Sequence record: SRR31156797_6672
Strand: one strand, 5' to 3'
DNA length: 56,722 bases
In this document: positions 25,501 to 56,722 of the stretch, piece by piece
How the letters are laid out: each line of letters opens with the position of its first letter
Position numbering within the stretch: position 1 is the first letter of the stretch
Notes under the pieces: generated by a model
What the model saw: the letters and a program-made list of their open reading frames with translations, nothing else
Database searches by the model: none
Told to the model about the DNA's origin: nothing
Position numbers and translations under genes: made by a program

Positions 25501-28500
25501 CGGAACATATGTTGGGTTTTGAGCAACAATGTTGTCAAATTCACCATCTCCGGATGTGTTCCAGGTAAATCCGCATGTGTTTTCAGCAAAGATATTTGCA
25601 GTATAAGATTCTCCCTCACAAAGTGTAACATCTGCTCCTGCATCCACCTCCGGAAGTATCTGGAAGCACAACACCATATCGTCCGATACAGAAACAGAAC
25701 AGGGATTAATTGGCAATGCCCCAAGTGTTAGGGTAACACATCCCAAATCAACATCAGCTGCTGTTGGTATATATAGCGGATTTAGCACACCAGGGTTGTC
25801 AAATTGTCCGGTACCATTCGTTGTCCATGAAAGTCCGTCATAATTTGAGGCAGTTACACCAACAAGTTGATATCTGCCATCTTCACAAATGGTCTGGTCA
25901 TCACCAGCGTTAACCATTGGCGATGGCTGTATGCTTATTAGCATGCAATCGGTATCTGACAATTCACAAGGTGAGCATGGATCACCAGTTAAGCATAACT
26001 CAACAAATCCATTCTGAATATCCTGTGTTCCCGGTGTGTAAACGGCATTGGGATCAGAAGCATTATTGAAGGCACCATCACCCTGTGTTTCCCATAAAAG
26101 CCCACAAGCATTTTCAACACTTCCACTTAGTTGGTAAGTGTCATCTTCGCATATTTCTGCATTCGGGCCTGCATTCGCTGTCGGAGCAGGAAGTATGGTA
26201 ACGGTCATGCAATCTGAATCGGGTAGGGTGCATGGATCGCAAGGTTCAGCATTGAGGCAAATTTGTGCAAAACCAAGCATCAGGTCAATTGAACCTGGTG
26301 TATATGCTGAATTCAAATCCTGCGAATCACTGAAAACACCATCTCCGGAGGTTGTCCATTCGAAACCACAAGCATCATTTACAGCGCCCTGCAAAGTTGC
26401 ACTACCCGTTTCACAAATCACCTGATCTTCACCCGCCAGGGCTTCAGGGGGTGACTGGAAGCAAAGTTCAAGCACATCAGATGTGCCTGTTGAACAAGGG
26501 TCTATTGGAGAAACAGTAACCTGCAATGTAACGCAACCAGAAATAAAGTCAAGGAACGTTGGTTCATAGGTTGCTTCAAGTACAAAGGGATCAATAAATT
26601 CACCCGTACCAGAGGTTGTTATCCATTGTACTACTCCATAATCTGAGCCTGAAGCACCGGTGGTAGTGAAATTATCACCTTCACAAACCGTGGCATCAGG
26701 GCCTGCTTCAATCGCCGGGTTGGGTTGGAATGACAAATTCATGCAGTCGCTCACACTTCCTGTTGCCGGAGGAATTGCTTCGGCAGTTATGCACAATTCA
26801 ACAACTCCAATGGCTAAGTCATTCTCACCTGGCGAATAAGTGGGTTGTTCCGCATTCGCATCATCAAAAGTACCGTCGCCGCTAGTTGTCCACAATATTG
26901 ACTGATAATTTTCTGCTGATGCTTCAGCAAGTACCAAACTTTCAGCTTCACAAATCACATGGTCGCCTCCGGCAGAAACAACCGGGTAAGGGCCTATCTC
27001 CAGTTCAAGGCAATCCATCGCCTCTGTTTGGCATGGATCCGCCGGCAATGCAGTAAGGCAAAGGCCAACAGAACCAGCGTTAACATCGCCGCTTCCCGGA
27101 GTATAAACCGGGTTTAGTGTTGCTGCATCATCAAATCCACCGTCACCATCTGTGGTCCATTGCAGCGCACTGTAATTTTCGGCAGTAGCCTGCTCTAAAG
27201 TGTAGGTTTGCCCTTCAGCAATTGCGACATCATCACCGGCAAATGCTTCAGGACCTTTTTGGATAAGCAGGGTTATACAGTCTGTTACACTTTCACTGCA
27301 TGGATCGCATGGCTGAACAGTAAGACATATTTCCACCGTTCCACTTTCAATATCGTTTGGTCCGGGAGTGTATACTGCATCGGCTATCGCCGGATTATCA
27401 AAATTACCATCACCGGTGGTTTCCCAAAGTAACCCACAAGTGTTTTCGATTGTTGGTGTCAGTCCCAGTACGTCATCTTCACAGATCGTTGCATCCTGAC
27501 CAGCGTTTACAACCGGCTGCAATTGGAAACAAAGTGTCCGATAGTCTTCCGCAACAGTCGTACAGGGGTTGAATGGCTGGGCATAAACACCAAGTGAAAT
27601 ACATCCTGCCTGATAATCGGTTAAGGATGGAGTGTAAACCGGATTAATAATTGTTTCGTCACTAAACGATCCTGATCCATCCACAGCAATCCAAAGAATT
27701 GCAGATTCATTTTCAACCGTTGCATCATTTATTTGAAGCGTTTCTTCTTCGCAAATTGTTTCGTCAACCCCAGCGAAAACTATTGGGTTTTTATCAATAG
27801 TCAATGTCATGCAGTCACTATAAGAGGCCAAACACGGATCGCATGGGAAGACTTCCAGGCAAAGGGTTGCTGCACCTGTTTCAATATCTGTAGCTCCAGG
27901 CGTATAATTTGCCATTACATCAGCAGGATCATCAAAATTTCCATCTCCTGAAGTTGTCCATAAAACTCCACAAGCATTTTCAACAATAGCATCGGTTGTA
28001 AAAATTTCGTCTTCACAAACGGCGTCATCTGCCCCGGCATCAACAGTCGGTTCAGGTTGGATAAAAATAGTTAAACAATCAAAAACTGCCTGGGTACACG
28101 GATCACAAGGAAGTGCATACAGACACACCTCAGCATTACCAGCACTGAGATCGCCGGAACCGGGATGATAAGCGGTAAATAAATTTGATTCATCATCAAA
28201 GGTACCATCCCCTTCTGTATCCCAATAAAAATCGCAGGCTTCAGTTACTTGTCCTGATAAATCATAAGCTGTGCCTTCACAAATTGTGACATCTTCGCCG
28301 GCAAGTGCCGTAGGCAATAGCTGGAAACACAAATTCATTTCGTCGGCTGCCTGAGTTGTACATGGGTCGATTGGTAATGCTGTAGCCTGAACGGTAACGC
28401 AACCCTGTGCATAGTCAGACGCTGATGGGAAGTATGTTGGTTTAAGTGCGCCATCATCACTAAACTGGCCTGATCCGTCAACCGTAATCCACAATAGACT

Positions 28501-31500
28501 TGCATAGTTTGAGGCAACAGTCTCGTTAAATAAATAATTCTCACCCTGGCAAATGGTCTGATCATCGCCAATAGCGATTGCCGGCTCATTCTGGATGGTA
28601 AGCACCATACAATTGTTTCCAACCACAGTTGATGGTGGAACGGGCTGGGCAGTTATGCAAAGTTCAACAGATCCTGCAGACTGGTCGCCGGTTCCGGGAT
28701 AATAGACAGGTTGAGTTGTTGTGACATCGCTGAAAGTACCGTCGCCATTGGTGTTCCAAAGTATAGAAAGATAATTTTCTGCTGTTGCCTGATCCAGAGA
28801 ATATGCTGACCCTTCACATACTGTGGCATCAGGCCCTGCATATACGTTGGGTGCCAATCCGATTACAAGCGTCAGGCAATCCTCATCGGCTAGCTGACAG
28901 GGAGTAATCGGTTCTGCGGTAAGACAAAGCTCAACCGAACCATTCTGCTCGTCTCCAATTCCAGGTGTATAGATAACATTTAATATATTGTTGTCGTTAA
29001 AAGTGCCGTCTCCATTAGATTCCCAGTAGAAATTGCTGAAGTTTTCAACCGATGCGTCCGTGTTGGTGTAAGATTCGCCCTCGGCAATGGTAGCATCATC
29101 TCCGGCATTTGCCTGTGGTTTAGGCTGAATGGTAATGGTCATTTCATCCTGAACTGAGCCCAGACAAGGATCCATGGCTTGCGCAACAATGGTAAGTGTT
29201 ACCGAGCCAATGTTCAAATCATTAGGGCCATGTGTATAGGTTGGGTTTTCAATAGAAGCATTGTCAAATCCACCATCACCACTACTTAACCATTGCAATG
29301 AGGCGTAATTATCTGCACTTGATGAAGCCAACAGGTAGCCTTCATCTTCACATACTGAAGCATCAGGTCCTGCATCCGCCTGAGGAGGTGCCTGGAAACA
29401 CAATTCCATGATATCGCTGGAACTCACCAGGCACGGTGAGTTGGGCAGTGCTTCTATTTGAAGTGAAATGCATCCTTGTTGGATATCAATTAATGAGGGT
29501 ATGTATGTTGGGTTCACTATATTTTCGTTGTCAAAAGTCCCGGATCCATTAAGTGTTGCCCACTGAACCGTTGAATAATTTTCAGCACTTGCTTCTGAAA
29601 GTGTAAATGTTTCCCCTTCGCAAATTGTTGCGTCCGGGCCGGCAGAGGCCAATGGTGACTTTTCAATGGTAATATTCAGGCAGCTAATGGCATCAACTTC
29701 ACAGGGATCACAAGCATAGGCCGTTAAACAAATTTCGAGCCCGCCAGTTTCAATATCATTTGCCCCTGGATAGTAGGTTGTTCCCAGACTGGTATTATCA
29801 TCAAAAGTACCGTCGCCACCGGAGGTCCACAGAAACCCACAATAATTATCTGCGGTTGCATTTAATAGCGCATTTTCACCTTCACAAAGAGAAATATCAT
29901 TTCCGGCATCAGCTGAAACCTGCTTTTGAATAAAAACAGTCATACAATCATCGGCATTGGTATTGCACGGATCACAGGCTGTTGCAAAAATGCATAGCTC
30001 AACCTGTCCGTTTTCAATATCCTGTGCGCCAGGAGTGTATTGAGGAACAATTGCTGTTGCGTCATTAAAAGAGCCATCCCCTGTGGTTGTCCACAATAAA
30101 TCACAATAATGATCAGCGGCAGAAGTTGGCGAAACCTGATCTCCCTCACAAATGGTTACATCCGAACCCGCATCAGCAGTTGGGTTTTTCTGAATAGCAA
30201 GATCAATACAATCAAATGCATCAACAAGACACGGATCGCATGCACTGGCGGTTAAGCATAACTCAACCAAACCGGCATTGATATCAGCAGTACCAGGAAA
30301 GTATTGTGCGCCGGGTGCTGATGCATTATCAAAGGTGCCGTCACCATCTGTCGTCCAGAGTAGTCCGCAATAATTTTCGGCATTTCCATTGAGCAAAATA
30401 TCTTCATCTTCGCAAACCGTTTGATTATTACCTGCATCGGCAAGTGGTTGTTTTCTGATTGTTAATGTCAGGCAATCAGACGGGTTTTGCACACATGGAT
30501 CACATGCTTCCGCCTCAAGACAAAGTTCTACTGTTCCGGTTGTGATGTCATCCTGACCGGGTGTATAAACCGGTACTAAAATTCCAACATTACTAAATGT
30601 TCCATCACCGTTTGTTGTCCACAACAAATTGCAATAATTATCAGCATCTCCCGGTGGTGAAATCGTTTCGCCCTGACAAATCGTAATGTCCTCGCCCACA
30701 GAAACTGATGGCGATTTTTGAATGGTAAGGGTTAAACAATCGAAGGCATCAACGGTGCAGGGGTCGCAAGCATCTGCCTGGATACAAATTTCAACTGTTC
30801 CCAGTAAAATATCATTATCGCCAGGATAATATGTTGTGCTTAATTCTGAAGGGTTTCCAAACGTACCGTCACCATCGCCGGACCAAAGAAGTCCACAATA
30901 ATTGTCAGCAACAGCACTAATGGGAACCGATTCCCCTTCGCAAATCGTGATGTCAGCTCCCACATCCACCGTTGGAGAAACAACAAATGTTGCGGTCAGT
31001 GCATCCTGTGCCGGTGTCTCGCAGGGATCATTCGGCCCCGCAACAAGGGTCAGGTCAACACTTCCATTGTCAACATCGGCCTGCGATGGGTTATAATTTG
31101 TATTTAAACTGCTGTTATCATCAAATGTGCCAGAACCAGATGTTATCCATTCCAAGCTGCTGTAGTTTTCAGCGGTTCCTGCAAGCACAACGACATCGGG
31201 CATGCAAACAGACTGATCTACCCCGGCATCTGCTGTAGGTGCCGGCGATATTGTTACACTAACATCGTCAGAAACAACGCTCAGTCCATCGTCAACCTCA
31301 ACAGTGTATGTGGTGTTTTCAGTTGGGTAAGCTACCGGATTTTGCAGATTTGAAGAAAATCCGGCAGGAACGGATGACCACGAGAATGAGTATGATTCGC
31401 TGCCTCCCGAGGCATCTGCAAATAGTTGAATGCCATCTCCTTCACATCCGGAATCCGGATTGGCTGACGCGGTAACTTCAAGTAGCCCGGTTAAAATTTG

Positions 31501-32217
31501 TGTAAGTGAAGACAAGCCATTATCCGTAAAAGTGCCGTCATTGTTTGGCAACGACTGGTTGTATGAAACAATGGCTTCTTTTGTTTCAGGAACTGATGCA
31601 TAGTAAACTTTCCAGAGAAATTCCTCTCCCTCGTCAAATCCTTCCTTCTCAGGATCGGTGGTCATATCATCACCAAAGGCAGTTACAACTTTATTGTTTT
31701 CATCATCCCAAATGACAAAACCACCGCATTTTTCCTGGCTGTTTTCATCCAAATAAAATACGCCTAAAAAATCACCATAATTGAGCTGATCTCCAAACAC
31801 CTGCACTGCCAATGGGATAGAAATTAAATGTGAGGACCCGGTTTGAATCACATCCCACCCAACTGGATAATCATTTACGTCGATGTATGCCGATTTGGTT
31901 TCCACACTAATATTGCCATCACCATCTTCCACTTCAAGTATTACAGTGTACTCACCTGCTGAATTATAATAAATTGCAGGCGGAACTTTACCCGACCAGG
32001 TAGAGGGTGTTCCACCGACGAATGTCCAATTCCACGAAATCGGATCGCCCGTGGTTAAATCTAGAAAATTTACACTGTTGCCGGTGGCAACAAGGGTTAC
32101 ATTTGATTGAAAATCGGCTGTAACCGCCGCCATTACCCTGTTACCCGAGGCATATAAAACCCCAACAAAAAAAGGCAAAAGGATTACTACTAAATAATTC
32201 GTAGAAAGTTTTTTCAT
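19504..32217 (-). CDS. Giant (4237 aa) T9SS-secreted repeat protein: signal peptide, PKD domain, 40 Cys-rich Ig/PKD-like repeats, T9SS type A C-terminal domain
   Basis: N-terminal signal peptide; PKD motif SWNWTF...GEYTVIL; repeat consensus PxAxAGxDxTICE...WxTxGDGxFDx...YxPGxxDxxxGxVxLCL...CDPC...DC; C-terminal IYPNP...NMQGQL...GVYLV sorting domain. Confidence 0.93.
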   Translation of the reverse strand: MKKLSTNYLVVILLPFFVGVLYASGNRVMAAVTADFQSNVTLVATGNSVNFLDLTTGDPISWNWTFVGGTPSTWSGKVPPAIYYNSAGEYTVILEVEDGDGNISVETKSAYIDVNDYPVGWDVIQTGSSHLISIPLAVQVFGDQLNYGDFLGVFYLDENSQEKCGGFVIWDDENNKVVTAFGDDMTTDPEKEGFDEGEEFLWKVYYASVPETKEAIVSYNQSLPNNDGTFTDNGLSSLTQILTGLLEVTASANPDSGCEGDGIQLFADASGGSESYSFSWSSVPAGFSSNLQNPVAYPTENTTYTVEVDDGLSVVSDDVSVTISPAPTADAGVDQSVCMPDVVVLAGTAENYSSLEWITSGSGTFDDNSSLNTNYNPSQADVDNGSVDLTLVAGPNDPCETPAQDALTATFVVSPTVDVGADITICEGESVPISAVADNYCGLLWSGDGDGTFGNPSELSTTYYPGDNDILLGTVEICIQADACDPCTVDAFDCLTLTIQKSPSVSVGEDITICQGETISPPGDADNYCNLLWTTNGDGTFSNVGILVPVYTPGQDDITTGTVELCLEAEACDPCVQNPSDCLTLTIRKQPLADAGNNQTVCEDEDILLNGNAENYCGLLWTTDGDGTFDNASAPGAQYFPGTADINAGLVELCLTASACDPCLVDAFDCIDLAIQKNPTADAGSDVTICEGDQVSPTSAADHYCDLLWTTTGDGSFNDATAIVPQYTPGAQDIENGQVELCIFATACDPCNTNADDCMTVFIQKQVSADAGNDISLCEGENALLNATADNYCGFLWTSGGDGTFDDNTSLGTTYYPGANDIETGGLEICLTAYACDPCEVDAISCLNITIEKSPLASAGPDATICEGETFTLSEASAENYSTVQWATLNGSGTFDNENIVNPTYIPSLIDIQQGCISLQIEALPNSPCLVSSSDIMELCFQAPPQADAGPDASVCEDEGYLLASSSADNYASLQWLSSGDGGFDNASIENPTYTHGPNDLNIGSVTLTIVAQAMDPCLGSVQDEMTITIQPKPQANAGDDATIAEGESYTNTDASVENFSNFYWESNGDGTFNDNNILNVIYTPGIGDEQNGSVELCLTAEPITPCQLADEDCLTLVIGLAPNVYAGPDATVCEGSAYSLDQATAENYLSILWNTNGDGTFSDVTTTQPVYYPGTGDQSAGSVELCITAQPVPPSTVVGNNCMVLTIQNEPAIAIGDDQTICQGENYLFNETVASNYASLLWITVDGSGQFSDDGALKPTYFPSASDYAQGCVTVQATALPIDPCTTQAADEMNLCFQLLPTALAGEDVTICEGTAYDLSGQVTEACDFYWDTEGDGTFDDESNLFTAYHPGSGDLSAGNAEVCLYALPCDPCTQAVFDCLTIFIQPEPTVDAGADDAVCEDEIFTTDAIVENACGVLWTTSGDGNFDDPADVMANYTPGATDIETGAATLCLEVFPCDPCLASYSDCMTLTIDKNPIVFAGVDETICEEETLQINDATVENESAILWIAVDGSGSFSDETIINPVYTPSLTDYQAGCISLGVYAQPFNPCTTVAEDYRTLCFQLQPVVNAGQDATICEDDVLGLTPTIENTCGLLWETTGDGNFDNPAIADAVYTPGPNDIESGTVEICLTVQPCDPCSESVTDCITLLIQKGPEAFAGDDVAIAEGQTYTLEQATAENYSALQWTTDGDGGFDDAATLNPVYTPGSGDVNAGSVGLCLTALPADPCQTEAMDCLELEIGPYPVVSAGGDHVICEAESLVLAEASAENYQSILWTTSGDGTFDDANAEQPTYSPGENDLAIGVVELCITAEAIPPATGSVSDCMNLSFQPNPAIEAGPDATVCEGDNFTTTGASGSDYGVVQWITTSGTGEFIDPFVLEATYEPTFLDFISGCVTLQVTVSPIDPCSTGTSDVLELCFQSPPEALAGEDQVICETGSATLQGAVNDACGFEWTTSGDGVFSDSQDLNSAYTPGSIDLMLGFAQICLNAEPCDPCTLPDSDCMTVTILPAPTANAGPNAEICEDDTYQLSGSVENACGLLWETQGDGAFNNASDPNAVYTPGTQDIQNGFVELCLTGDPCSPCELSDTDCMLISIQPSPMVNAGDDQTICEDGRYQLVGVTASNYDGLSWTTNGTGQFDNPGVLNPLYIPTAADVDLGCVTLTLGALPINPCSVSVSDDMVLCFQILPEVDAGADVTLCEGESYTANIFAENTCGFTWNTSGDGEFDNIVAQNPTYVPGAGDYAAGSVEICVVGQACDPCTASAGDCLTIFFQPGPIAFAGPDDGVLAGNPFVFEDADADNYSALLWETSGDGTFDDPTVLNPTYNHGPADEANFGVELCLTAQPVDPCQLVAQDCMLLQIGSMPVITAGPDITLCEEFAYLIIDATAENYSAILWTTSGDGVFDDNTAVNPVYTMGPNDLATGSAVLCMLAEPVPPATISATDCMVLTVSYQPTASAGDDVTLCGNDPYTLDGSADNYCGIVWTTSGDGTFDDNGLLQPQYTPGEQDMANGSVEICIDALACNPCQVNANDCMTMLLLDAPEANAGNDITICENKTASLSGSVGNNCDFYWETEGDGDFDNITSLTPTYTPGVEDAQNGFVEICLVALPCEPCTAMTTDCMTLTLQLLPQPDPGPDASICIGDTYDINATLDHGCGFFWQTTGSGNFSDPGSLETTYIPSAADYSNGSVVISLFAFPCNPCTNFQTEGMTLSFVSDPSVDAGDDGTICSFETYQLEPITQDACTFLWETSGDGTFNDNSILNAVYYPGPQDAISGTVEICITALPCGSCETPANDCMTLTVIPGPVVDAGVDATICENQGYQLAGIADNQCGTQWTSSGDGTFDNPVAPNASYTPGILDIENGLVVLTLSVDACAPCTSVISDDIILSFALLPLVESGADATILAGDDYQVTDATVENASSFNWSTNGDGAFDDPTDIAPVYSPGDTDINNGMVTLCLTAQPIDPCLATATDCLTLSIGSPAVVDAGPDATICESSNFFIELATADNYSSLSWTTSGDGTFSDTGTLNPVYFPGNLDITNGTAVLCLDAQPVPPASQGDQDCMTLTIISAPSAFAGGDPVICEGDTYQLDGFIENACGNYWTTSGDGTFDNITAFDATYFPGAEDMLTGSVEICLVAEGCAPCDDATDCIMITINMTPAADAGLDATVCENEAYQLSGTAAEACGTLWETSGDGNFNNPELENATYTPGPTDIAQGSVQLCLTAQGCDPCPDDQDCMTIYFQPAPVALAGSDLTICEDEVVQLSGEVENACGSLWSTIGSGTFDNPGLLDASYSPGTSDIANGVVTLCLIAEPCDPCEIQDEDCLNVFIEAAPVVDAGEDAEVCEGESYTLSGSAENACGLLWTTSGTGNFNNPELVNATYFPSMEDLANGSVEICLTADACDPCSGSFEDCMTLTFSPPPFAFAGDDQTICENQSIQLDGFVADACGFIWSTNGDGEFDNIALPNAMYTPGIADIAAGSVEICLEAFACDPCFGNITSCLTLTIQPEAQAIAGEDADICVGETYTLGGNTLNACDWLWSTNGDGQFDFAGNLDASYTPGTDDITSGSVELCLEAFSCDPCSVSDIDCLTLTLHPEATVAAGDDQTVCESQSAQLSGSATNACDFFWTTSGDGGFDDPTNTDATYTPGDADIATGSVELCYTAVSCSPCETNVTDCLTISILANPTVDAGPDQSVCEDQTVDLSATVTDACGVNWTTNGFGSFDDNQSLTPDYTPGIFDIGAGTIEICVTAQPCDPCSVADQDCLSVTFIEHAVVNAGEDDEACLDAPYQLNGNAENVSGVLWTTSGDGVFDDAGLADAVYTPGANDATTGFVDLTLTGFAIDPCTVNTTDAITLTLHGCQVTVIPAGWSGISTWVDPLDTELEELFAPVLDELIILQTMEDSWWPAENFNTIGTWDYQQGYKIKVTEEVTLNIPGNILANTTLSLDAGWNLIPVLSSCTVNVEELFEGTSVVMVKEVAGWKLFWPIYGINTLVDLTNGSAYYVYMETAGSITFPACDDQKSGYQPSSYEVVPPAIWMDVTPSATSHVIAIPSGAVKGIVDGDLIGVVDNNGNSFGFTKWTGENTSISAFGDDPTTDTKDGFGEGEPMGFVLLDSENMELTELAVVFDEQFQSGGHFADNGISALKTAGFTGISDPGTIADINIYPNPVKHNLIIEFGQEADFDVQILNMQGQLIWSGSVTGPTAEVDFSNYNNGVYLVHISGNTKTFVERVTKQ
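20641..31239 (-). repeat. Array of 40 divergent ~88-aa (~265-bp) coding repeats within the giant protein
   Basis: 40 AGxDxx(I/V/L)(C/A/L) repeat heads counted by hand from the translation; span ~10.6 kb. Confidence 0.88.
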
Positions 32218-46264: not shown

Positions 46265-46510
46265 TCAATGTAACTGCGCTTCGATTAGCTTTTTAAGCTC
46301 TTCTCGTTCGGGTAAATAGAGTTGATACTTTGAGACAAATAATTGGGAATTAACGTTATGCATGGCATATTTTACCCAGTGTATCCAACTCAATTTGTGC
46401 GGATCCTCCGCATAAATTCGATATTCATCATAAAACTGCCTCATTCTTTGAGGGTTGCTTTGACTAAATTTACCAAATCGGTGAGTCAGAACCTTTGATA
46501 AATTATGCAT
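46265..46510 (-). pseudogene. Internally deleted YhcG/DUF1016 (PDDEXK nuclease family) remnant, still an open 81-codon frame
   Basis: N-terminal part LSKVLTHRFGKFSQSNPQRMRQFY...LSWIHW resembles DUF1016_N; C-terminal part YAMHNVNSQLFVSKYQLYLPEREELKKLIE resembles the YhcG C-terminus; the nuclease core is missing. Confidence 0.7.
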
Positions 46511-49144: not shown

Positions 49145-49152
49145 TATTTTTG
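49145..49152 (+). promoter_or_regulatory. Bacteroidota -7 promoter element (TATTTTTG) at the head of the RRE/kinase/GT cluster
   Basis: Exact TAnnTTTG match 36 nt before ATG 49189, which supports that start over the TTG at 49141. Confidence 0.6.
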
Positions 49153-49188: not shown

Positions 49189-49647
49189 ATGGGATTAGCA
49201 AATATACTTACGGTGAATGAGCCCAATGTAGTGCACGAAACCATTGATGGTGAAACCATCCTGCTTGATTTAAATACGGGGAATTATTTCAGCCTTGCAG
49301 GGCCCGGTGCAATTGTATGGGAGGCCATTGTTGAAACCGGTAGTTGGAAAATGGTTATAGAGGAGTTTCAAAAAAATAACGGGGAATCAAAGGATACAAT
49401 CCGGAAATCCATTACTGGTTTTTTGGGGGATTTGATGCAGGAAAACCTGCTGGTTGAAACAACCGATGCAAAAGCAGATCATTTTTCTGATGAAATAGCT
49501 AACCAGATCAAAGAAGCCGCAAAGAACTTTACAGCCCCTGCTATCAATAAATATTCTGACATGCAGGACTTGTTACTGCTTGACCCGATTCATGAAGTGG
49601 ACGAAAAAGGCTGGCCCGAAAGCAAAGATGCTCCAGAAAATGAGTAG
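49189..49647 (+). CDS. PqqD-family RiPP recognition element (RRE) with a fused C-terminal leader/precursor-like peptide
   Basis: VVHETIDGETILLDLNTGNYFSLAGPGAIVWE...FLGDLMQENLL is a PqqD/RRE signature; tail FTAPAINKYSDMQDLLLLDPIHEVDEKGWP. Confidence 0.88.
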   Translation: MGLANILTVNEPNVVHETIDGETILLDLNTGNYFSLAGPGAIVWEAIVETGSWKMVIEEFQKNNGESKDTIRKSITGFLGDLMQENLLVETTDAKADHFSDEIANQIKEAAKNFTAPAINKYSDMQDLLLLDPIHEVDEKGWPESKDAPENE

Positions 49648-49676
49648 CGGATATCCATTCTGGTAAAACCCTGTTT

Positions 49677-50810
49677 ATGAAACCTAAATATGGAAGTCCA
49701 TTCACCAATCCATCACAGGAATTACTGATCAAATCTTGTTTTGCATCCCCCGGGGATTTTGGAACCTTTTATTCAAAATGGAAAAAACAAATTGATTTTG
49801 AGGAAGACATCGAGTATGGATCATTCAGGCTTTTGCCCCTGCTATATTTAAAATTGCTCGATCATAAAATTGAAGATGAACTCACGCCAAGGCTAAAGGG
49901 TATCTACCGGAAATCGTGGTCCCAAAACCACTTTCTTTTCAGGGAAACGGGTAAGGTAGTAAATTTCATGCATCAACATGGCATTCCAACGCTTTTGATC
50001 AAAGGCATTCCGTTGTCCATTTTGTCCTATCGTAATTATGCAGCGAGGCCGATGGTAGATATGGACATTCTGGTTCATCCTGAGGATGCAAAGACAACTT
50101 TCAGGCTTTTGCTCGATAACGGCTGGAAGTCGGCAGACGAAGTTCATGATCACTACAACCTGAATCATCAGAAAAGCATTACGGCAATTGATAAGAAAAA
50201 TACAGAATTCGACCTGCACTGGTATCCTTTTGATGAGTGTTATGGACTTGCGAACAAGGATGATTTTTGGGACCGGGCTGAAGAAATTGTTGTTTCCGGA
50301 GCAAAAACACTTGCACAGTGCGCTGCTGATGAATTGTTGCTTTCTTTTGTTCACGGGCTTATGCCAAATCCAGTTCCGCCTATCCGTTGGATTGCCGACG
50401 CTATGACGTTGATCAGCGACAAGAAACGACCGGTTGACTGGGACAGGGTTATTGAATATGCAGGAAAATTCAGTGTGCAGGTTCAACTCCAAATTGCTAC
50501 AAAATACCTGAACGAAACTTTTGATGCTCCCATTCCAGAGGAGGTGTACAACAGAATTTTAAAAATAAAGCCCACGCTTGCCGACAAGCTGGTTTATAAA
50601 AGGAAAGGGGTTTTCGTTTACCATCCCTCACTTAAAAAACTTTTCATCGCCTACATCTCTTTTCTCAAAAACCCGGCATACAAAAGTTTGCTCACCAGGC
50701 ATTTTGCATTTTTCAGGTACCTTCGTGAAAGGTCGAAAGGAAAACCTGCTTTTAAAATTTTGATCTACTATATTTCCGTAATTTTAAAGCGAAGAAAATC
50801 AAACAGATAA
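49677..50810 (+). CDS. Nucleotidyltransferase family protein (NTP_transf_5 type, as found in lasso/RiPP clusters)
   Basis: LLIKGIPL...Y..YAARPMVDMDILV (RxxxDxD), EFDLHW, IRWIAD, VDWDRV. Confidence 0.88.
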   Translation: MKPKYGSPFTNPSQELLIKSCFASPGDFGTFYSKWKKQIDFEEDIEYGSFRLLPLLYLKLLDHKIEDELTPRLKGIYRKSWSQNHFLFRETGKVVNFMHQHGIPTLLIKGIPLSILSYRNYAARPMVDMDILVHPEDAKTTFRLLLDNGWKSADEVHDHYNLNHQKSITAIDKKNTEFDLHWYPFDECYGLANKDDFWDRAEEIVVSGAKTLAQCAADELLLSFVHGLMPNPVPPIRWIADAMTLISDKKRPVDWDRVIEYAGKFSVQVQLQIATKYLNETFDAPIPEEVYNRILKIKPTLADKLVYKRKGVFVYHPSLKKLFIAYISFLKNPAYKSLLTRHFAFFRYLRERSKGKPAFKILIYYISVILKRRKSNR

Positions 50811-50824
50811 TACCAAAACAATAA

Positions 50825-52528
50825 TTGGCTGCTTTACGAAAGAATAAACCAGGTAAGCGCACAGCGCTCTTTTCAAGACCGGCATGGCGATACTTCTATG
50901 GTTTTTTTAAACAAGACCGGAATAAACTTGTGTTCACGTCTCTGGGTTTTGTTGCGGCCAGTTACCTGATACTGCCCACACTTTGGCTTGTAAAACATGT
51001 GTTTGACGTTGCCATTCCACAGAAGCAGGTTACAACATTTTTCCTGGCCGGAGGTGCCATTTTTTTAATCCGGGTTGTGAATAGTTCCATCACCCTCTAT
51101 CTCCGTAAATACAATATCAACACGATATCAAATGCCATTTTTGAACTGCGTAAACACCTGACCCATAAAATTTTTACCCTATCCCGCTCCTACCTCGACA
51201 GGGAGGACCTTTCCATATTGCACACACGCATCGTACAGGATACAGAACGTGTTTCAAGGATGGGGACATCAATCATTGGCGGACTATTTCCCGCAATCCT
51301 GGTAAGCATCGGCCTGATTGGTGTGTTGCTGTATTTAAACTGGTATCTGTTCCTGATAATTCTCCTTTTTTTTCCTGTCTTGTATTTTTCAAACAATTAC
51401 ATGGGCCGGATTGCAAAAAAAAAGGTTTACAGCTACCAGCGCGCATTTGAAGGGTTTAGCCGGGGAACCATGTTCCTGATCAAATTTATGGATTTGATAA
51501 AACTGCAGTCGGTTGAAAATGAAGAAAGCGAAAAGCAAAACACCATTCTGGATGATCTGAAAAACAAAACCACGGACAGAACTTTTTTTAATACCCTCAA
51601 CAACCAGACCCAAAGTCTGGTGCTGAGCCTAATTGGGCTTACAGTGCTTATTGTGGGTGGTATTGCTGTGGTTAAGGATGTGATGACCCTGGGCGATCTG
51701 ATGGCATTTTACCTGGCGGCGATGCAATTACAATCCAGGCTGGGAAATATCAGCGGGTCTTTTTCGAATTTGCTTACCGGAAATGAATCGCTGATTACAC
51801 TTTATCATATCGCTGAGAAGCGCGAAACAGAACCTTACTCCGGAAAGCAAAAAATCCAGTTGCAAAATAAAATCCAATTTAAATCGGTTGCTTTTCAATA
51901 CACAGATAACCCGGTTCTTCACAACATAAACCTTACCATTTCGAAAGGTAAAAGTTATGCCATCATTGGCCCGAACGGATCTGGGAAATCCACCATCATT
52001 CACCTGTTACTGGGATTTTATAAACCGATGGATGGCAATATTTTTGCAGATGAAACTCCCTACGATGAGATTGATTTTAGCTGGTTCAGAAAATCATTTG
52101 GTGTTGTATCCCAGCACCCGCCACTCATTCAGGGTACTATTTCCAATAATATTTCATTCGGAAATAATGCTTCCACAGATAATGACATCCTTGAATCAGC
52201 AAGACTATCAACTGCAAACGACTTCATTCAAAAGCTACCCAATGGATTCCAAACAGAAATCGGTGATAGCGGTGTGTTGCTTTCCGGTGGTGAAAGGCAG
52301 AAAATAGCCATTGCCCGGGCACTATTGCGAAAACCGAAATTGCTCATTCTGGATGAGCCTACTAACCATCTTGATGAATCGGCTGTGGAAGAAATTATGC
52401 AAAATATTAAATCGCTTCACTTCAATCCTTCAATATTAATTATCAGTCACGACATGTCGGTAATCCGGCACGCATCCGAAATTTACATGTTGGATAAAGG
52501 CATTTTAAACGTATACAATCAGGCATAA
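50825..52528 (+). CDS. ABC exporter, fused permease plus ATP-binding domain (no C39 peptidase domain)
   Basis: Six TM segments; Walker A GPNGSGKST, signature LSGGERQK, Walker B LILDEPT, H-loop ISHD. Confidence 0.95.
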   Translation: MAALRKNKPGKRTALFSRPAWRYFYGFFKQDRNKLVFTSLGFVAASYLILPTLWLVKHVFDVAIPQKQVTTFFLAGGAIFLIRVVNSSITLYLRKYNINTISNAIFELRKHLTHKIFTLSRSYLDREDLSILHTRIVQDTERVSRMGTSIIGGLFPAILVSIGLIGVLLYLNWYLFLIILLFFPVLYFSNNYMGRIAKKKVYSYQRAFEGFSRGTMFLIKFMDLIKLQSVENEESEKQNTILDDLKNKTTDRTFFNTLNNQTQSLVLSLIGLTVLIVGGIAVVKDVMTLGDLMAFYLAAMQLQSRLGNISGSFSNLLTGNESLITLYHIAEKRETEPYSGKQKIQLQNKIQFKSVAFQYTDNPVLHNINLTISKGKSYAIIGPNGSGKSTIIHLLLGFYKPMDGNIFADETPYDEIDFSWFRKSFGVVSQHPPLIQGTISNNISFGNNASTDNDILESARLSTANDFIQKLPNGFQTEIGDSGVLLSGGERQKIAIARALLRKPKLLILDEPTNHLDESAVEEIMQNIKSLHFNPSILIISHDMSVIRHASEIYMLDKGILNVYNQA

Positions 52529-52529
52529 A

Positions 52530-55070
52530 ATGGACAAACCTGAAAAATCGGAACAGGAACAAATTCATTTTTTTGAGCAATGTAAACTAAAGTTTAACCA
52601 GGCTGCAATAAAAACAGGAGCAATTAAGCTTTTTTACCGGATTGCCGAAACAACAGTTTGTTTGAATTTCGCCGGAAAGGCATTACTTCCCTGGTTAACT
52701 CCCGCGCTGGAACACCTCAAAATAAACGCTGCAAGCGCAGATTTAACAATTCATGTTTTTGATACCATTTCCACCGGGGTGAATGCCCCTCCCCCGCCAT
52801 GCGAATGGGCGGATTTTACAGATCGTGGAGATATCTGGGGATTCAACAGCAAGCGCATCAAAACTGCCTTTCACTGGAGTGAATATTCAGTGAATGTACT
52901 CGACCTGGATACCAATACCGGTGTTTACTGGGTGAAAAACCCAAATGCTTTTCCGTACTGGGTTTATTCCTCTCCTTTCCGCTCAATGATACAGTGGTGG
53001 ATGGAAAAAAATGGAGGCCAGCTTTTGCATGCTGCCGCTGTAGGCAATGAAGACGGTGCTGTGTTGATTACCGGCAAAGGCGGAACCGGAAAATCAACCT
53101 CTGCTATCGTTAGCCTTGACCAGGGTATGAAATACCTGGGCGACGACTATGTGATCGTGAAAAAAGATCCGGAACCAACTGTCTACAGTCTTTATAGCAC
53201 AGCCAAACTCAACATTGAGGACATGAGTAAGTTCCCTGCTCTTGCACCAATGGCAGTTAATAAAACTAAGGAAGACCAGGAAAAAGATGTGCTGTTTCTG
53301 TATCCAAAACGCAGGCATCAGATCGTTGACAAACTTCCGATTAAGGCCATCCTTACACCAAAAATTCAAAAGAGCAGAAATACCGATATTGTTCCGGCGT
53401 CATTCTGGCCCATTCAAAAAGCCATGTCATTTACAACCATGTCGCAACTTCCTGGCGTGGGATCGCACACACAACAATACATCAGGGAATTCATTTCAAA
53501 ACTTCCCTGTTATCTGTTAAAACCGGGAAATTATTACCCGGGAGTTTCCGATACAATTACGGATTTTCTTGATCATCCTGAAAAGTACCAGGTTGATGAA
53601 ACTGCAAAAGAAAACAAGGAAAAACCGCTGATAAGCATTGTGATACCGGTCCATAACGGCGCCCGATTTATTCATGCTGCCATCGAAAATATCCGGCAAC
53701 AAAAATATCCGGCAACCGAGATTTTTATTGTGGATGATGGTTCGACCGACGATACCCGTGAAGTGGTTGAAAACCTGGATGAGGATGTGCGCTATTTTCA
53801 CCAGCCCAATTCAGGCCCGGCAGCGGCAAGAAATAGAGCAATCAGGGATGTATCAGGAGAATTCATCGCCTTCCTGGATGTGGATGACCTGTGGCCGGAT
53901 AAAAACCTTGAGATGCTGATGCAGGAATTACAGCAAAACCCTGAGCTGGATTTGGTAAGGGGGTATGCCCAGCTTTTCAGAATAAATGAAAATGATGAAA
54001 TGGAGTATATCGGGAATCCAAAAGAATCCTATCCAAACTATATCGGTGCGGCGCTTTACCGCAAATCGGCCTTCGAAAAAGTAGGGTTATATGATCCTGA
54101 ATTACGTTTTGGTGAGGATGGTGACTGGTTTAACCGCGCCAAAGAAAAGCAGATTAATATGAACCGCCTGGATGATGTCACGCTTTTTGTGCAACGCCAC
54201 GAAAATAACATGACCAAAGGCAAAAGCCTGGTGGAACTCAACACACTGAAGGTTTTTAAAAAGAAACTTGAAAGAAAGCGCTCGGGTATAGTTGAAGACA
54301 AAGTAAAACCTGATGCAAACCATAAAACTAACCTACCACTGATCAGTGTGATTATTCCGGTGTACAATGGCGGTGCATTTATTGCAGATGCCATCGAGAG
54401 CGTAAAATCGCAAAACTACCAGCCTATCGAGATCATCGTTGTTGACGATGGGTCAACGGACAATACGGCGGACATGGTGAAAATGACTGGTGAAGGCCAG
54501 GCCTATTCCAGGCAGGAAAACAATGGCCCTGCAGCAGCCAGAAATGCAGGATTACGCCAAGCAAAAGGAAAGTATATCGCTTTCCTTGATGCTGACGATG
54601 TTTGGCTTCATGATAAACTAATCCGCCAGGAAGCCTTAATGCGCAACCAGTCGAAATCAGGTGCCGTGATTGGCTATACCCATAAAATGCCCATGTCACA
54701 AAAACCCGGCAACAATAAGAAAAACCAGGGTGATTTCCTGCTCAGCCTTGGAGCATCACTGTTCAGAAAAAGTGTTTTCGACAAAGTCGGTTTTTTTGAC
54801 GAGAATCTTAAATCCGGTGAAGACATCGACTGGTTTTTAAGGGCAAGAGAAGCCGGAGTTCACATTATGATTCATAAACAGCTTGTGCAATATTACCGAA
54901 CTCATGGCCGCAATATTTCCAACAATCAAAATCTGGTTAATCTGTTCTTACTTAAAGTGCACAAAAAATCTCTGGATCGCAGGCGTAAGGCCGGGAAGGG
55001 TACTGCATTTAAACTGCCAAAACTCAATGATGTGGATGAAATAATGAAATTCTGGCAGAATCGGGATTAA
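52530..55070 (+). CDS. Fusion protein: HprK-related P-loop kinase plus two GT2 glycosyltransferase domains
   Basis: aa 1-350: LLHAAAV...GKGGTGKST...YLGDDYV. GT2 domain a from aa 366 (PLISIVIPVHN, VDDGSTD, FLDVDD, GED.DW). GT2 domain b from aa 603 (PLISVIIPVYN, VDDGSTD, FLDADD, GEDIDW). Confidence 0.9.
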   Translation: MDKPEKSEQEQIHFFEQCKLKFNQAAIKTGAIKLFYRIAETTVCLNFAGKALLPWLTPALEHLKINAASADLTIHVFDTISTGVNAPPPPCEWADFTDRGDIWGFNSKRIKTAFHWSEYSVNVLDLDTNTGVYWVKNPNAFPYWVYSSPFRSMIQWWMEKNGGQLLHAAAVGNEDGAVLITGKGGTGKSTSAIVSLDQGMKYLGDDYVIVKKDPEPTVYSLYSTAKLNIEDMSKFPALAPMAVNKTKEDQEKDVLFLYPKRRHQIVDKLPIKAILTPKIQKSRNTDIVPASFWPIQKAMSFTTMSQLPGVGSHTQQYIREFISKLPCYLLKPGNYYPGVSDTITDFLDHPEKYQVDETAKENKEKPLISIVIPVHNGARFIHAAIENIRQQKYPATEIFIVDDGSTDDTREVVENLDEDVRYFHQPNSGPAAARNRAIRDVSGEFIAFLDVDDLWPDKNLEMLMQELQQNPELDLVRGYAQLFRINENDEMEYIGNPKESYPNYIGAALYRKSAFEKVGLYDPELRFGEDGDWFNRAKEKQINMNRLDDVTLFVQRHENNMTKGKSLVELNTLKVFKKKLERKRSGIVEDKVKPDANHKTNLPLISVIIPVYNGGAFIADAIESVKSQNYQPIEIIVVDDGSTDNTADMVKMTGEGQAYSRQENNGPAAARNAGLRQAKGKYIAFLDADDVWLHDKLIRQEALMRNQSKSGAVIGYTHKMPMSQKPGNNKKNQGDFLLSLGASLFRKSVFDKVGFFDENLKSGEDIDWFLRAREAGVHIMIHKQLVQYYRTHGRNISNNQNLVNLFLLKVHKKSLDRRRKAGKGTAFKLPKLNDVDEIMKFWQNRD

Positions 55071-55080
55071 CAGCATTTTC

Positions 55081-55767
55081 ATGATGAAACCAAAAGTAAG
55101 CGTAATCATACCGGTATACAACCGCGAGCAATACATTGCTGAGGCTATTCAAAGCGCCATAAATCAAGCCTGTTCCTCCATCGAAATTATTGTTGTTGAT
55201 GACGGGTCTACGGATGGTACGCCTGAGGTTGTTTCGCAATTCAAGACCATTAAAATTATAACACAATCCAACCAGGGTGTTGCTGCCGCACGAAATACCG
55301 GCCTTGCCCATGCATCAGGTGAACACATCGCTTTTGTTGATAGTGATGATATTTGTATGCCGAAGAGATTCCGGATTTGTTTGGATCATTTTGCAAAAAA
55401 TCCTGAAACAGATTTTATAGTTGGAAAAGAACAAATGTTTCTCGAAAAGAACACCCCCCAACCGGATTCAATAAATCCCGAATGGCTTGCGGGGCCAAGG
55501 GATGCCTGGAATACAGCTGTTTTATTTGCGAGAAAATCCTGTTTTGAAACCGCAGGAATGTTCAACACAAACTATATTTCAGGTGAGGACACAGAGTGGT
55601 TTTTTCGGGCTATAGGAGTGGGGCTAAAATATGTCCAGCTTCCCGATGTACTCATCAAACGCAGGATCCACTCCACCAATCTATCAATCGAGCGTAAGAA
55701 ATTTGAGAATAAAATGTTGTTTCAGGTACTCAGGGAATCGGTTCAACGAAAACTTCATAACAAATAA
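55081..55767 (+). CDS. Glycosyltransferase family 2
   Basis: KVSVIIPVYN, VDDGSTD, AAARNTG, FVDSDD, GEDTEW, RRIHSTN. Confidence 0.93.
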   Translation: MMKPKVSVIIPVYNREQYIAEAIQSAINQACSSIEIIVVDDGSTDGTPEVVSQFKTIKIITQSNQGVAAARNTGLAHASGEHIAFVDSDDICMPKRFRICLDHFAKNPETDFIVGKEQMFLEKNTPQPDSINPEWLAGPRDAWNTAVLFARKSCFETAGMFNTNYISGEDTEWFFRAIGVGLKYVQLPDVLIKRRIHSTNLSIERKKFENKMLFQVLRESVQRKLHNK

Positions 55768-55825
55768 CCCTTTTAGCCAATTTTGCCGATATTAGCTCAT
55801 GAAAAAGATTAACAGGCGATAAATC

Positions 55826-56584
55826 ATGAACAAACCAAAAATCAGTGTTATACTTCCCGTTTTTAACGGTGAGAAAAATGTAAGCCAGGCCATCAACAGT
55901 GTTTTAAATCAAACACTTAAGCCTTATGAAATCATTGTTGTAAATGATGGTTCAGTTGATGGAACTTCGCAAATATTAAAACAATTTGGCGATAAAATTA
56001 CTGGTATAGATCAAGATAATATGGGCCCGAACCGTGCCCGGAATACCGGGATTAAAGCCTCAACCGGAGATTTTATTGCATTTATGGATGATGATGACGA
56101 GATGATGCCAAAGGCTTTGGAACACCATGTTGCCTGCTTTTCAAAATACCAAAATCTTGGTGTTTCACATGGTTACGCCGAAATGAGGCAGTACCAGGCT
56201 TTGCCACCAGATAATGAGGAAATATTTGAATCGAAAACTGTACCCATGTTATTGTTACAGTGTGCATTGTTTAAAAAATCGGTGTTTGATAAGGTAGGTT
56301 TGTTTGATAAGGACTTGTTTTTGGCCAGCGATCTGGATATGTTTTTGCGGGTAAAAGAAGCTGAAATTCCTTTTGCTTTTCACGAGGAAGTGGTGGCAAT
56401 CCACAACAGACATCAGACAAACTCAACCGGAAATAAGGTTAAAGCCCAACTATACCTTTTAAAGGCAATTAAAAAAGCAAAAGAAAGGCGTAAAAATACT
56501 GGTGAAGGTCATAACATCGAAAAAATAACATTGAAAAATGCTGAAGATGCCCGCAATTTTTGGCACACAGCGAAAACAAATTAG
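55826..56584 (+). CDS. Glycosyltransferase family 2
   Basis: KISVILPVFN, VNDGSVD, ARNTG, FMDDDD, VGLFD, ASDLDM, RHQTN. Confidence 0.92.
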   Translation: MNKPKISVILPVFNGEKNVSQAINSVLNQTLKPYEIIVVNDGSVDGTSQILKQFGDKITGIDQDNMGPNRARNTGIKASTGDFIAFMDDDDEMMPKALEHHVACFSKYQNLGVSHGYAEMRQYQALPPDNEEIFESKTVPMLLLQCALFKKSVFDKVGLFDKDLFLASDLDMFLRVKEAEIPFAFHEEVVAIHNRHQTNSTGNKVKAQLYLLKAIKKAKERRKNTGEGHNIEKITLKNAEDARNFWHTAKTN

Positions 56585-56676
56585 CCATGGAAAATTACCC
56601 CTGCTTTGAGCAAATACGTTTGCGTTGTGAATATTTTACTTTTGACACTTATTAACCTGAATTAATCACCGAAGGC

Positions 56677-56719
56677 CGAAAATATTTAAAATAAATATTT
56701 TCGAGGGTTAACCCTCGAA
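56677..56719. repeat. Two overlapping inverted repeats downstream of the cluster
   Basis: CGAAAATATTTA-AAA-TAAATATTTTCG (56677-56703) and the perfect 20-bp palindrome TTCGAGGGTTAACCCTCGAA (56700-56719). Confidence 0.75.
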
Positions 56720-56722
56720 TTT

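Follow-up and report, generated by a model that had tools for sequence, protein, structure and literature searches.

The operon analysed here lies at positions 49189-56584 of sequence record SRR31156797_6672, a whole contig of 56722 nt that is called the window below, and it is a Bacteroidota copy of a widespread cassette that occurs across phyla. It consists of six open reading frames (ORFs) on the + strand with gaps of 29, 14, 1, 10 and 58 nt, which encode a lasso-B1-like RiPP recognition element (RRE; RiPP, ribosomally synthesised and post-translationally modified peptide) with a 62-residue tail, a PF14907 nucleotidyltransferase, an MsbA-like ATP-binding cassette (ABC) exporter, a kinase fused to two family 2 glycosyltransferase (GT2) domains, and two further GT2 enzymes. 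The cassette is built from the same parts as the tailoring sets of phosphorylated lasso peptides and as the linear polyphosphorylated peptide (LPP) clusters, except that the leader is fused to the RRE, and it is a conserved, unpublished variant of a recently described kind of system. We give about an even chance to an LPP-like mode of action, with the RRE bound to its own leader and an invariant tail held out to the kinase-GT2, PF14907 and GT2 enzymes, the RRE protein itself being the most likely target of decoration. A reading made from the sequence alone had proposed six tightly packed, co-oriented genes with these domains, and this was confirmed by the ORF calls and Pfam, and for the kinase by comparison of an AlphaFold2 (AF2) model with known structures. 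The genes, referred to as g1 to g6, and the parts of them that are discussed in the text are as follows.

49189..49647, + strand: g1, RRE protein of 152 aa (RRE at residues 1-90, linker helix 101-112, C-terminal tail); Pfam match to PqqD, AF2, Foldseek
49528..49545, + strand: leader-type motif F114-x-x-P117-x-I119 in g1; family column counts, AF2
49549..49617, + strand: invariant tail of g1, residues 121-143, K-Y-S-D-M-x-x-L-L-L-L-D-P-I-H-x-V-x-x-x-G-W-P; alignment of 135 sequences
49677..50810, + strand: g2, PF14907 (NTP_transf_5) nucleotidyltransferase, PsmN/LppN-like; Pfam E 5.6e-39
50825..52528, + strand: g3, MsbA-like ABC exporter with membrane and ATPase domains and no peptidase domain; Pfam
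52530..53600, + strand: N-terminal domain of g4 (entire ORF 52530-55070, + strand), HprK-related P-loop kinase of the phosphoenolpyruvate carboxykinase (PEPCK) fold; profiles, AF2 structure comparison
53616..55070, + strand: C-terminal part of g4 with two GT2 domains (about residues 363-590 and 601-846); PF00535 in two stretches
55081..55767, + strand: g5, soluble GT2; PF00535 E 3.3e-37
55826..56584, + strand: g6, soluble GT2; PF00535 E 9.4e-34

The RRE protein and its leader motif

The g1 protein matches the PqqD family of Pfam over residues 22-88 (33.7 bits against a cut-off of 23.4) and stays below the cut-off of the NCBIfam lasso_PqqD models (39.6 against 80 bits). An AF2 model based on an alignment of 85 sequences reached a pLDDT of 83.7, and its residues 1-90 form the complete B1 topology, including two short strands that lock the termini and that are likewise described for LppB and PbaB1 (Popov et al., 2026, PMC13381572). 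The top Foldseek matches were the TbiB1-leader complexes 5V1V and 5V1U (TMt 0.82-0.88), and the best structural matches, TbiB1 and TfuB1, were both solved together with leader peptides (TMt 0.79-0.88). When the family profile was compared with solved structures, it found TbiB1 at 2.4e-15, PbaB1 (9x90) at 3.9e-13 and LppB (9x8z) at 4.5e-5. The protein was assigned to the B1-type RREs.

A 25-residue linker with a helix joins this domain to a leader motif in the same chain. Among 200 family members, the first motif column holds F, L, Y or M in 193, the second P in 152 or L in 46, and the third L, V or I in 193, and the motif was generalised as [F/Y/L]xxPx[L/V/I]. The RREs of lasso and LPP systems bind leaders through the motif [Y/W]xxPx[L/V/I/F/A] (Popov et al., 2026, PMC13381572), and the sequence comparison supports a match in form between the two. 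In the AF2 model, a strand is predicted at residues 119-122 and the block 111-120 has a pLDDT of 92. In solved complexes of RREs with leaders, the leader strand just past the motif extends the sheet of the RRE (PMC13381572). The register of motif and strand modelled for g1 agrees with that of these leader strands and is consistent with docking of the tail on the RRE in cis.

The motif is followed, across phyla, by a nearly invariant stretch of about 20 residues, D-M..LLLDPIH..GWP. Its conservation was evaluated in 135 sequences, namely the window and 134 single-domain representatives, a set that is more independent than the first, partly redundant sample of 200 sequences. D124, D132, P133, H135, G141 and W142 are invariant or nearly so, and M125 and P143 also belong to the nearly invariant stretch. 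Over this tail the confidence of the AF2 model is low, with blocks of 68, 56 and 53, which suggests that the modelled tail makes no fixed contact with the RRE, as would be expected if it became ordered only when bound to a partner. The distal part of the LppA leader is described in the same way by Popov et al. (PMC13381572).

The RRE also occurs in natural fusions. Three of the best 150 representatives (P0141, P0207 and P0210) combine an RRE with tail, two more RREs and a kinase in one chain, and P0207 aligns to g1 at 8e-21 and to the kinase domain of g4 at 6e-45. In P0123, a glycosyltransferase, an RRE and the tail form one chain. Tandem proteins with two or three RREs account for 7 of the best 150 representatives (P0124, P0125, P0127, P0147, P0155, P0189 and P0235); in P0124, P0125 and P0147 a leader-like motif follows each RRE, and the full invariant tail follows the last RRE only.

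Distribution and gene content of the cassette

Relatives of g1 are numerous. A word-indexed library contained 1128 of them, about 150 aa in length, and an exhaustive search yielded 905 representatives at 50% identity with E <= 1e-30. A g1 relative is encoded in 577 of the 600 matched stretches listed, corresponding to at least 577 species genomes. The carriers belong to more than ten phyla and include Bacteroidota, Balneolales, Nitrospirota, Acidobacteriota, Chloroflexota, Cyanobacteria, Desulfobacterota, Gemmatimonadota, Gammaproteobacteria, Lentisphaerae, Clostridia and Spirochaetia. One cultured carrier is Rhodohalobacter sulfatireducens WB101 (locus L012). For the analysis of the gene neighbourhood, 80 related loci were kept, 58 of which have at least 6 kb downstream of g1 and are referred to as well-flanked, and their contents were counted within 10 kb. 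Among the well-flanked loci, the kinase is present in 57, a GT2 in 56 and PF14907 in 51, so that the conserved co-occurrence across genomes on which the sequence-only reading depended was found. The ABC exporter, which that reading had counted as a part of the cassette, is encoded here, but a full exporter was found in only 28 of the 58 loci.

The architecture of the kinase varies: in the 62 kinase ORFs, including that of the window, it stands alone in 28, is joined to one GT2 in 24 and to two GT2s in 10, the last being the arrangement found here. Recurrent accessory genes encode Stf0-like sulfotransferases, GT4, radical-SAM/SPASM proteins, epimerases, a methyltransferase, GT10 and DUF1647, and Wzy-like proteins also occur in the neighbourhoods of relatives. 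Five of the 10 Bacteroidota loci nearest by g1 identity extend downstream past the GT2 genes; in four of these (L001, L003, L005 and L011) one to three sulfotransferase-like genes come next, and in the fifth (L009) a restriction-modification pair. The pair in L009 (5242-7144) consists of genes for a Tsp45I-type restriction enzyme and a DNA methylase, which lie inside the cassette between a GT2 gene and the kinase gene. Locus L003 has the gltX-folB flank in common with the window. A metagenome scan with g6 returned no close relative, the best match having 48% identity over 91 residues.

The kinase and the other enzymes

The kinase domain of g4 falls short of the curated families. Its match to Hpr_kinase_C in Pfam is weak and below the cut-off (21.3 against 33.3 bits), and it does not reach the membership cut-off of the HprK-related kinase A/B models of NCBIfam, with 31 bits (1.4e-7) for TIGR04355 and 23.8 bits (2.1e-5) for TIGR04352, both far under the required 200 bits; ScmC is also a sub-threshold match. 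A profile of the g4 kinase found HprK at 3.1e-7 among PDB sequences. The AF2 model of residues 1-357, built from 59 cassette homologues, has a pLDDT of 92.4. Residues 162-357 of this model superimpose on the catalytic domains of HprK/P with Z scores of 13.4-14.3 and a root-mean-square deviation of 2.9-3.4 A, and residues 6-357 on whole PEP carboxykinases with Z scores of 16-18. The Walker A residues G185, G187 and K188 and the pair D205/D206 are invariant in the 59 sequences. With the P-loop and the C-terminal fold of HprK/P present in the model, the structure comparison confirmed the N-terminal part of g4 as a kinase of the HprK/PEPCK fold.

Behind this 357-residue N-terminal part, g4 matches Glycos_transf_2 (PF00535) in two stretches (E 5.1e-69). 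Together with g5 and g6, four domains have both a PF00535 match above the threshold and a DxD motif, the latter read in the translations, and neither the GT2 part of g4 nor g5 or g6 contains a membrane segment. The g2 protein scores 134.6 bits with PF14907, compared with a threshold of 31.2, and has the carboxylates of this family; in 54 cassette homologues D128 is conserved in 49, D130 in 52, D179 in 50 and H181 in 52. Searching the sequences of solved structures with the PF14907 profile gave no relative. In g3, Pfam identified ABC_membrane and ABC_tran, and five hydrophobic segments were found. Since only 53 residues precede the membrane domain, the exporter has no peptidase domain. The kinase, the nucleotidyltransferase and the GT2 domains all keep their catalytic motifs.

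These properties also bear on a more conventional explanation, which we consider improbable: the operon could serve donor activation in an ordinary polysaccharide locus, with the kinase and the PF14907 enzyme making a sugar phosphate and then a nucleotide sugar for the GT2s, the ABC protein flipping or exporting the glycan, and the PqqD protein acting as an accessory. It would account for the fact that the kinase has its best structural matches among small-molecule kinases, namely the PEP carboxykinases, for the resemblance of g3 to MsbA, PglK, HepA and glucan exporters (every match below the cut-off), and for the epimerases, GT4, sulfotransferases, methyltransferases and Wzy-like proteins near the relatives. 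It does not explain why, of all members of the cassette, g1 shows the most faithful linkage and the highest conservation and why it is found fused to the kinase, and PF14907 is not the family of the sugar-1-phosphate nucleotidyltransferases. Moreover, the operon lacks a priming phosphoglycosyl transferase, Wzx/Wzy and Wza/Wzc. The LPP-like mode of action is favoured by the solubility of the kinase-GT2, PF14907 and GT2 enzymes and by the lack, in the Pfam results for the operon, of a lipid-carrier transferase as priming enzyme.

Lasso core genes, peptidases and separate precursors

According to the sequence-only reading, a lasso cyclase and a B2 peptidase are missing from the window, and this was borne out: neither Asn_synthase nor Transglut_core3 was found among its large ORFs scanned with Pfam, and a profile built from 20 B2-type peptidases had no match in all six frames. 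In the related loci, Asn_synthase was found in none of the 34 representatives of recurring clusters and in none of the 76 longest other neighbours. The B2 profile matched 2 of the 80 loci only, both from Smithella and both in a separate upstream module.

No separate precursor emerged either. When 1795 small ORFs from the 80 loci and the window were clustered, only antisense and tRNA artefacts recurred across loci, and the ORFs of at least 20 aa in the 548-nt spacer upstream of g1 contain nothing precursor-like. An LppA precursor with the leader YxxPxVLxHQxIxFETxxS was represented by no ORF in the spacer or in the small-ORF clustering; g1 itself contains a shorter motif of this type. Stand-alone tail peptides were encountered twice in a library of 5.8 billion clusters, and one of the two was probably cut by a contig end. 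The archaeal-type SpI peptidase (LppS) was absent from the six genes, from the other scanned ORFs of the window and from 146 scanned neighbour proteins of related loci, a set that does not comprise all small singletons.

These results support the conclusion that the cassette is not linked to lasso core genes, as no cyclase, no B2 peptidase outside the Smithella modules and no recurring separate precursor was found in the loci searched. For the source genome, the absence applies to the window alone, and the contig ends in a repeat. It is very improbable that the operon belongs to an ordinary paeninodin-type lasso cluster whose cyclase, B2 peptidase and precursor lie just past the contig end. 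Such a cluster could be hidden by the contig, which stops 138 nt beyond g6 in a repeat, and a PF13471 (Transglut_core3) match exists somewhere in 26 of the 55 host genomes of relatives that were searched (L001-L054 and L065), as compared with 2 of 14 control genomes, which were not matched to the hosts. However, the 20 strongest Transglut_core3 matches are on other contigs or 350 kb from the cassette, and three of the first five host genomes tested have no PF13471 match at all. The rarity of B2 profile matches in the related loci, the lack of Asn_synthase among their scanned neighbours, the sulfotransferase-like or restriction-modification genes that follow downstream in the nearest Bacteroidota loci, and a terminator-like hairpin after g6 likewise disagree with it.

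The two Smithella modules (L066:1684-5716 and L075:4390-7579) contain PF14907, a tail-less PqqD protein of 88 aa (seen in L066), an HprK-like kinase and a B2-like peptidase, the ORF of which was confirmed in L075 as Transglut_core3 by Pfam. Genes for a carboxyltransferase and DUF2784 lie between this second module and the self-leadered cassette. The Smithella loci thus place tail-less and tailed RREs side by side in nature.

Comparison with described systems

The sequence-only reading had presented the system as uncharacterised and without a described relative, which no longer holds: the LPP family, with an RRE, an HprK-like kinase, PF14907 and an MsbA-like pump but no cyclase, was published in 2026. 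It is the closest described system. LPP clusters of Bacillota comprise LppA/K/B/S/D/N, and according to the published description LppK polyphosphorylates a Ser of the core, LppN was inactive in a heterologous host and the family is restricted to Bacillota (Popov et al., Nat Commun 2026, PMC13381572). The cassette has the same core set of RRE, HprK-like kinase, PF14907 and MsbA-like transporter, likewise without a macrolactam cyclase, and both systems are often found amid glycosyltransferase genes and have a leader motif of the form [Y/W/F]xxPx[L/V/I]. Unlinked lasso genes in the hosts are a further likeness, with 26 of 55 genomes here and "more than half" there, where the co-occurrence of LPP and lasso genes is reported for Bacilli (PMC13381572). 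The differences are nevertheless considerable. LppA is a separate precursor, whereas the motif here sits on the RRE itself and is followed by an invariant tail that is absent from LppA, and the SpI-type leader peptidase of LPP was not found in the scanned proteins of the cassette. In the cassette, 34 of the 62 kinases carry one or two fused GT2 domains, and the carriers span more than ten phyla. LppB is only a weak match of the g1 profile (4.5e-5) in comparison with TbiB1 (2.4e-15). The would-be acceptor position of the cassette, finally, is mostly Thr, which LppK does not accept.

The tailoring sets of phosphorylated lasso peptides, such as PadeK for paeninodin and PsmK/PsmN for pseudomycoidin, share with the cassette the HprK-like kinase, PF14907, a B1 RRE and an ABC pump. 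Addition of hexose to the phospho-Ser of pseudomycoidin requires PsmN (Zyubko et al., Chem Sci 2019, PMC6993621), the DxD of which is the counterpart of D128/D130, conserved in g2. The target in these systems is the C-terminal Ser of a separate peptide, and the cassette differs from them by the absence of a cyclase, a B2 peptidase and a lasso precursor and, in this operon, by four dedicated GT2 domains. A dedicated glycosyltransferase is able to act iteratively on a lasso peptide (Sun et al., 2025, PMC11912497). Residues 1-90 of g1 have the same fold as the lasso B1 proteins solved with leaders (TbiB1, 5V1V/5V1U; TfuB1, 6JX3; PbaB1, 9X90), in contrast to which the leader-like motif of g1 sits in the same chain. 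The literature search, in which subscription journals and the supplements of the LPP paper lay outside the scope, returned the LPP paper and lasso papers only and no description of the self-leadered cassette.

A precedent for a substrate that is fused to a pathway protein is provided by the borosin-type precursors such as OphMA, in which a single protein comprises both the modifying enzyme and the core peptide, and a precursor gene of its own does not exist. The fused partner in OphMA is the catalytic methyltransferase and the chemistry is N-methylation; in the cassette, unlike in borosins, the fused partner is a recognition domain.

Proposed mode of action and the acceptor residue

Binding of the tail in cis, docking of the enzymes on it, the role of g1 as acceptor, and the nature and site of the modification are inferred. 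The chemistry of the sequence-only reading, formation of a phospho-Ser and then nucleotidylation or glycosylation, is likewise putative. In a first step, the RRE of g1 would recognise the [F/Y/L]xxPx[L/V/I] motif in its own tail, in the manner of a B1 protein with the leader of its precursor. This self-binding would hold out the invariant 20-residue stretch (D-M..LLLDPIH..GWP), on which the kinase-GT2-GT2 protein, the PF14907 enzyme and the two further GT2s may then dock, most likely modifying g1 with a group that contains phosphate and sugar. In this subfamily, the MsbA-like pump would export the product, to which relatives could add the action of Stf0-like sulfotransferases.

Several observations weigh against this scheme. 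As the cassette has no peptidase, the product would be the whole 17-kDa protein, the ABC pump is missing in 30 of the 58 well-flanked loci, and MsbA-type pumps are not known to export folded proteins. The cis binding of the tail is a prediction taken from the secondary structure and confidence of an AF2 model. The kinase of g4 is structurally closer to whole PEP carboxykinases than to HprK/P, and a small-molecule substrate is possible. The remaining points concern position 123, which has the one conserved hydroxyl of the tail and is Ser or Thr in 190 of the 200 sequences of the first sample. In the 135-sequence set it is Thr in 89, Ser in 22, Asp in 7, Glu in 5 and another residue in 12, so that Ser/Thr is present in 111 and absent from 24 representatives. 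Six of the 80 loci have no Ser/Thr at this position (I, I, E, H, V and N), and they keep the kinase in all six cases, with the invariant Walker A and DD residues, and PF14907 in five. The sole hydroxyls conserved in at least 95% of the 135 sequences are those of Y33 and S35, which are both within the RRE. LppK, for its part, is described as phosphorylating Ser and not Thr (PMC13381572), and position 123 is mostly Thr.

Ser/Thr 123 was rejected as a universal phospho-acceptor, being lacking in 24 of 135 representatives with an intact kinase in such loci. The fusion of RRE and precursor postulated by the sequence-only reading is supported in form, with a leader-type motif on the tail of g1 and no separate conserved precursor, but not with Ser/Thr 123 as an acceptor shared by the whole family.

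It is conceivable, although we regard it as rather unlikely, that g1 is an adaptor only, an unmodified docking hub or a regulatory pseudo-substrate which, through its self-bound leader and invariant tail, assembles the kinase, PF14907 and GT2 enzymes or switches them, and that these enzymes build a soluble oligosaccharide or phosphoglycan, sulfated in relatives, on another acceptor. This would fit the lack of a universally conserved hydroxyl in the tail and the retention of the kinase in loci without Ser/Thr 123. Twenty residues that are invariant across phyla exceed what an acceptor site would require and are typical of binding motifs, and 12 of the 24 substitutions at position 123 are Asp or Glu, as expected if a negative charge matters there and not an anchor for a glycan. 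Enzymes fused to the tail would have a single turnover if the tail were consumed, and the missing peptidase and the presence of an exporter in only 28 of 58 loci are in line with such a role. An unmodified g1 is harder to reconcile with the operon encoding no other acceptor, with its soluble GT2s and the lack of a lipid-carrier priming enzyme, and with the studied homologous kinases and PF14907 enzymes, which act on an RRE-bound peptide.

The LPP-like reading, in which g1 is decorated, also has a more far-reaching form, which we put forward as tentative and doubtful: g1 could be a self-leadered, self-priming protein on whose tail the soluble enzymes build a phosphoglycan, sulfated in relatives, that is then exported or clipped off. 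The acceptor would in that case be a residue other than position 123 or one additional to it.

Flanks of the operon and further features of the window

Two features at the borders of the operon were found by sequence reading, for the second together with read depth.

49145..49152, + strand: TAnnTTTG promoter-like motif, 36 nt before the ATG of g1
56700..56722, + strand: G+C-rich terminator-like hairpin (56700-56719) followed by TTT, at the very end of the contig and within the repeat

The single TAnnTTTG promoter assumed by the sequence-only reading is thus present as a motif. Across the window, however, TAnnTTTG has 67 matches as opposed to 55.7 expected, a number that was reached in 5 of 100 shuffles; since the motif is not enriched, only its position supports a promoter at 49145-49152. 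At the other border, the read depth climbs from 379 to 1285 within about the last 65 nt of the contig, about three times that of the remainder, and the contigs placed there are only 31-41 nt long. Positions 56658-56722 are probably a dispersed repeat that broke the assembly. An ORF of 22 codons (56587-56655) starts 2 nt past the stop of g6; it belongs to none of the small-ORF clusters in the 80 related loci, so nothing indicates a gene here.

Upstream, beyond the spacer, the minus strand encodes gltX, folB, a Cys-rich protein, a DUF1016 fragment, a radical-SAM protein, DUF6873 and a PLD-like protein, and the + strand of the same flank an EamA transporter. The DUF1016 fragment, an ORF of 81 aa at 46265-46510 on the minus strand, matches only parts of DUF1016/YhcG nuclease domains and is probably a gene remnant. 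The remaining window resembles a Bacteroidota chromosome, with MreB/MreC, tgt, RecJ and PurH. It also contains, at 19504-32217 on the minus strand, an ORF of 4237 aa with a PKD domain at the N-terminus and a type IX secretion sorting domain at the C-terminus; no Pfam family covers most of its length.

Significance of the cassette

If the LPP-like reading is true, genome-mining rules that seek a small precursor gene beside an RRE overlook an entire class of systems, namely those that carry the precursor within the RRE protein itself. The cassette ties recognition of the RiPP type to glycosyltransferases and sulfotransferases and may point to an unknown kind of bacterial glycoconjugate. It is also a route to the still unknown function of the PF14907 enzymes and to the end product of the LPP family. 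Should the self-priming form hold, the cassette would be a bacterial protein-primed pathway for a glycan or glycopeptide with the same product in more than ten phyla; that the product would be the same is suggested by the invariance of the tail, and the pattern is more like that of a cofactor or a signal than that of an antibiotic.

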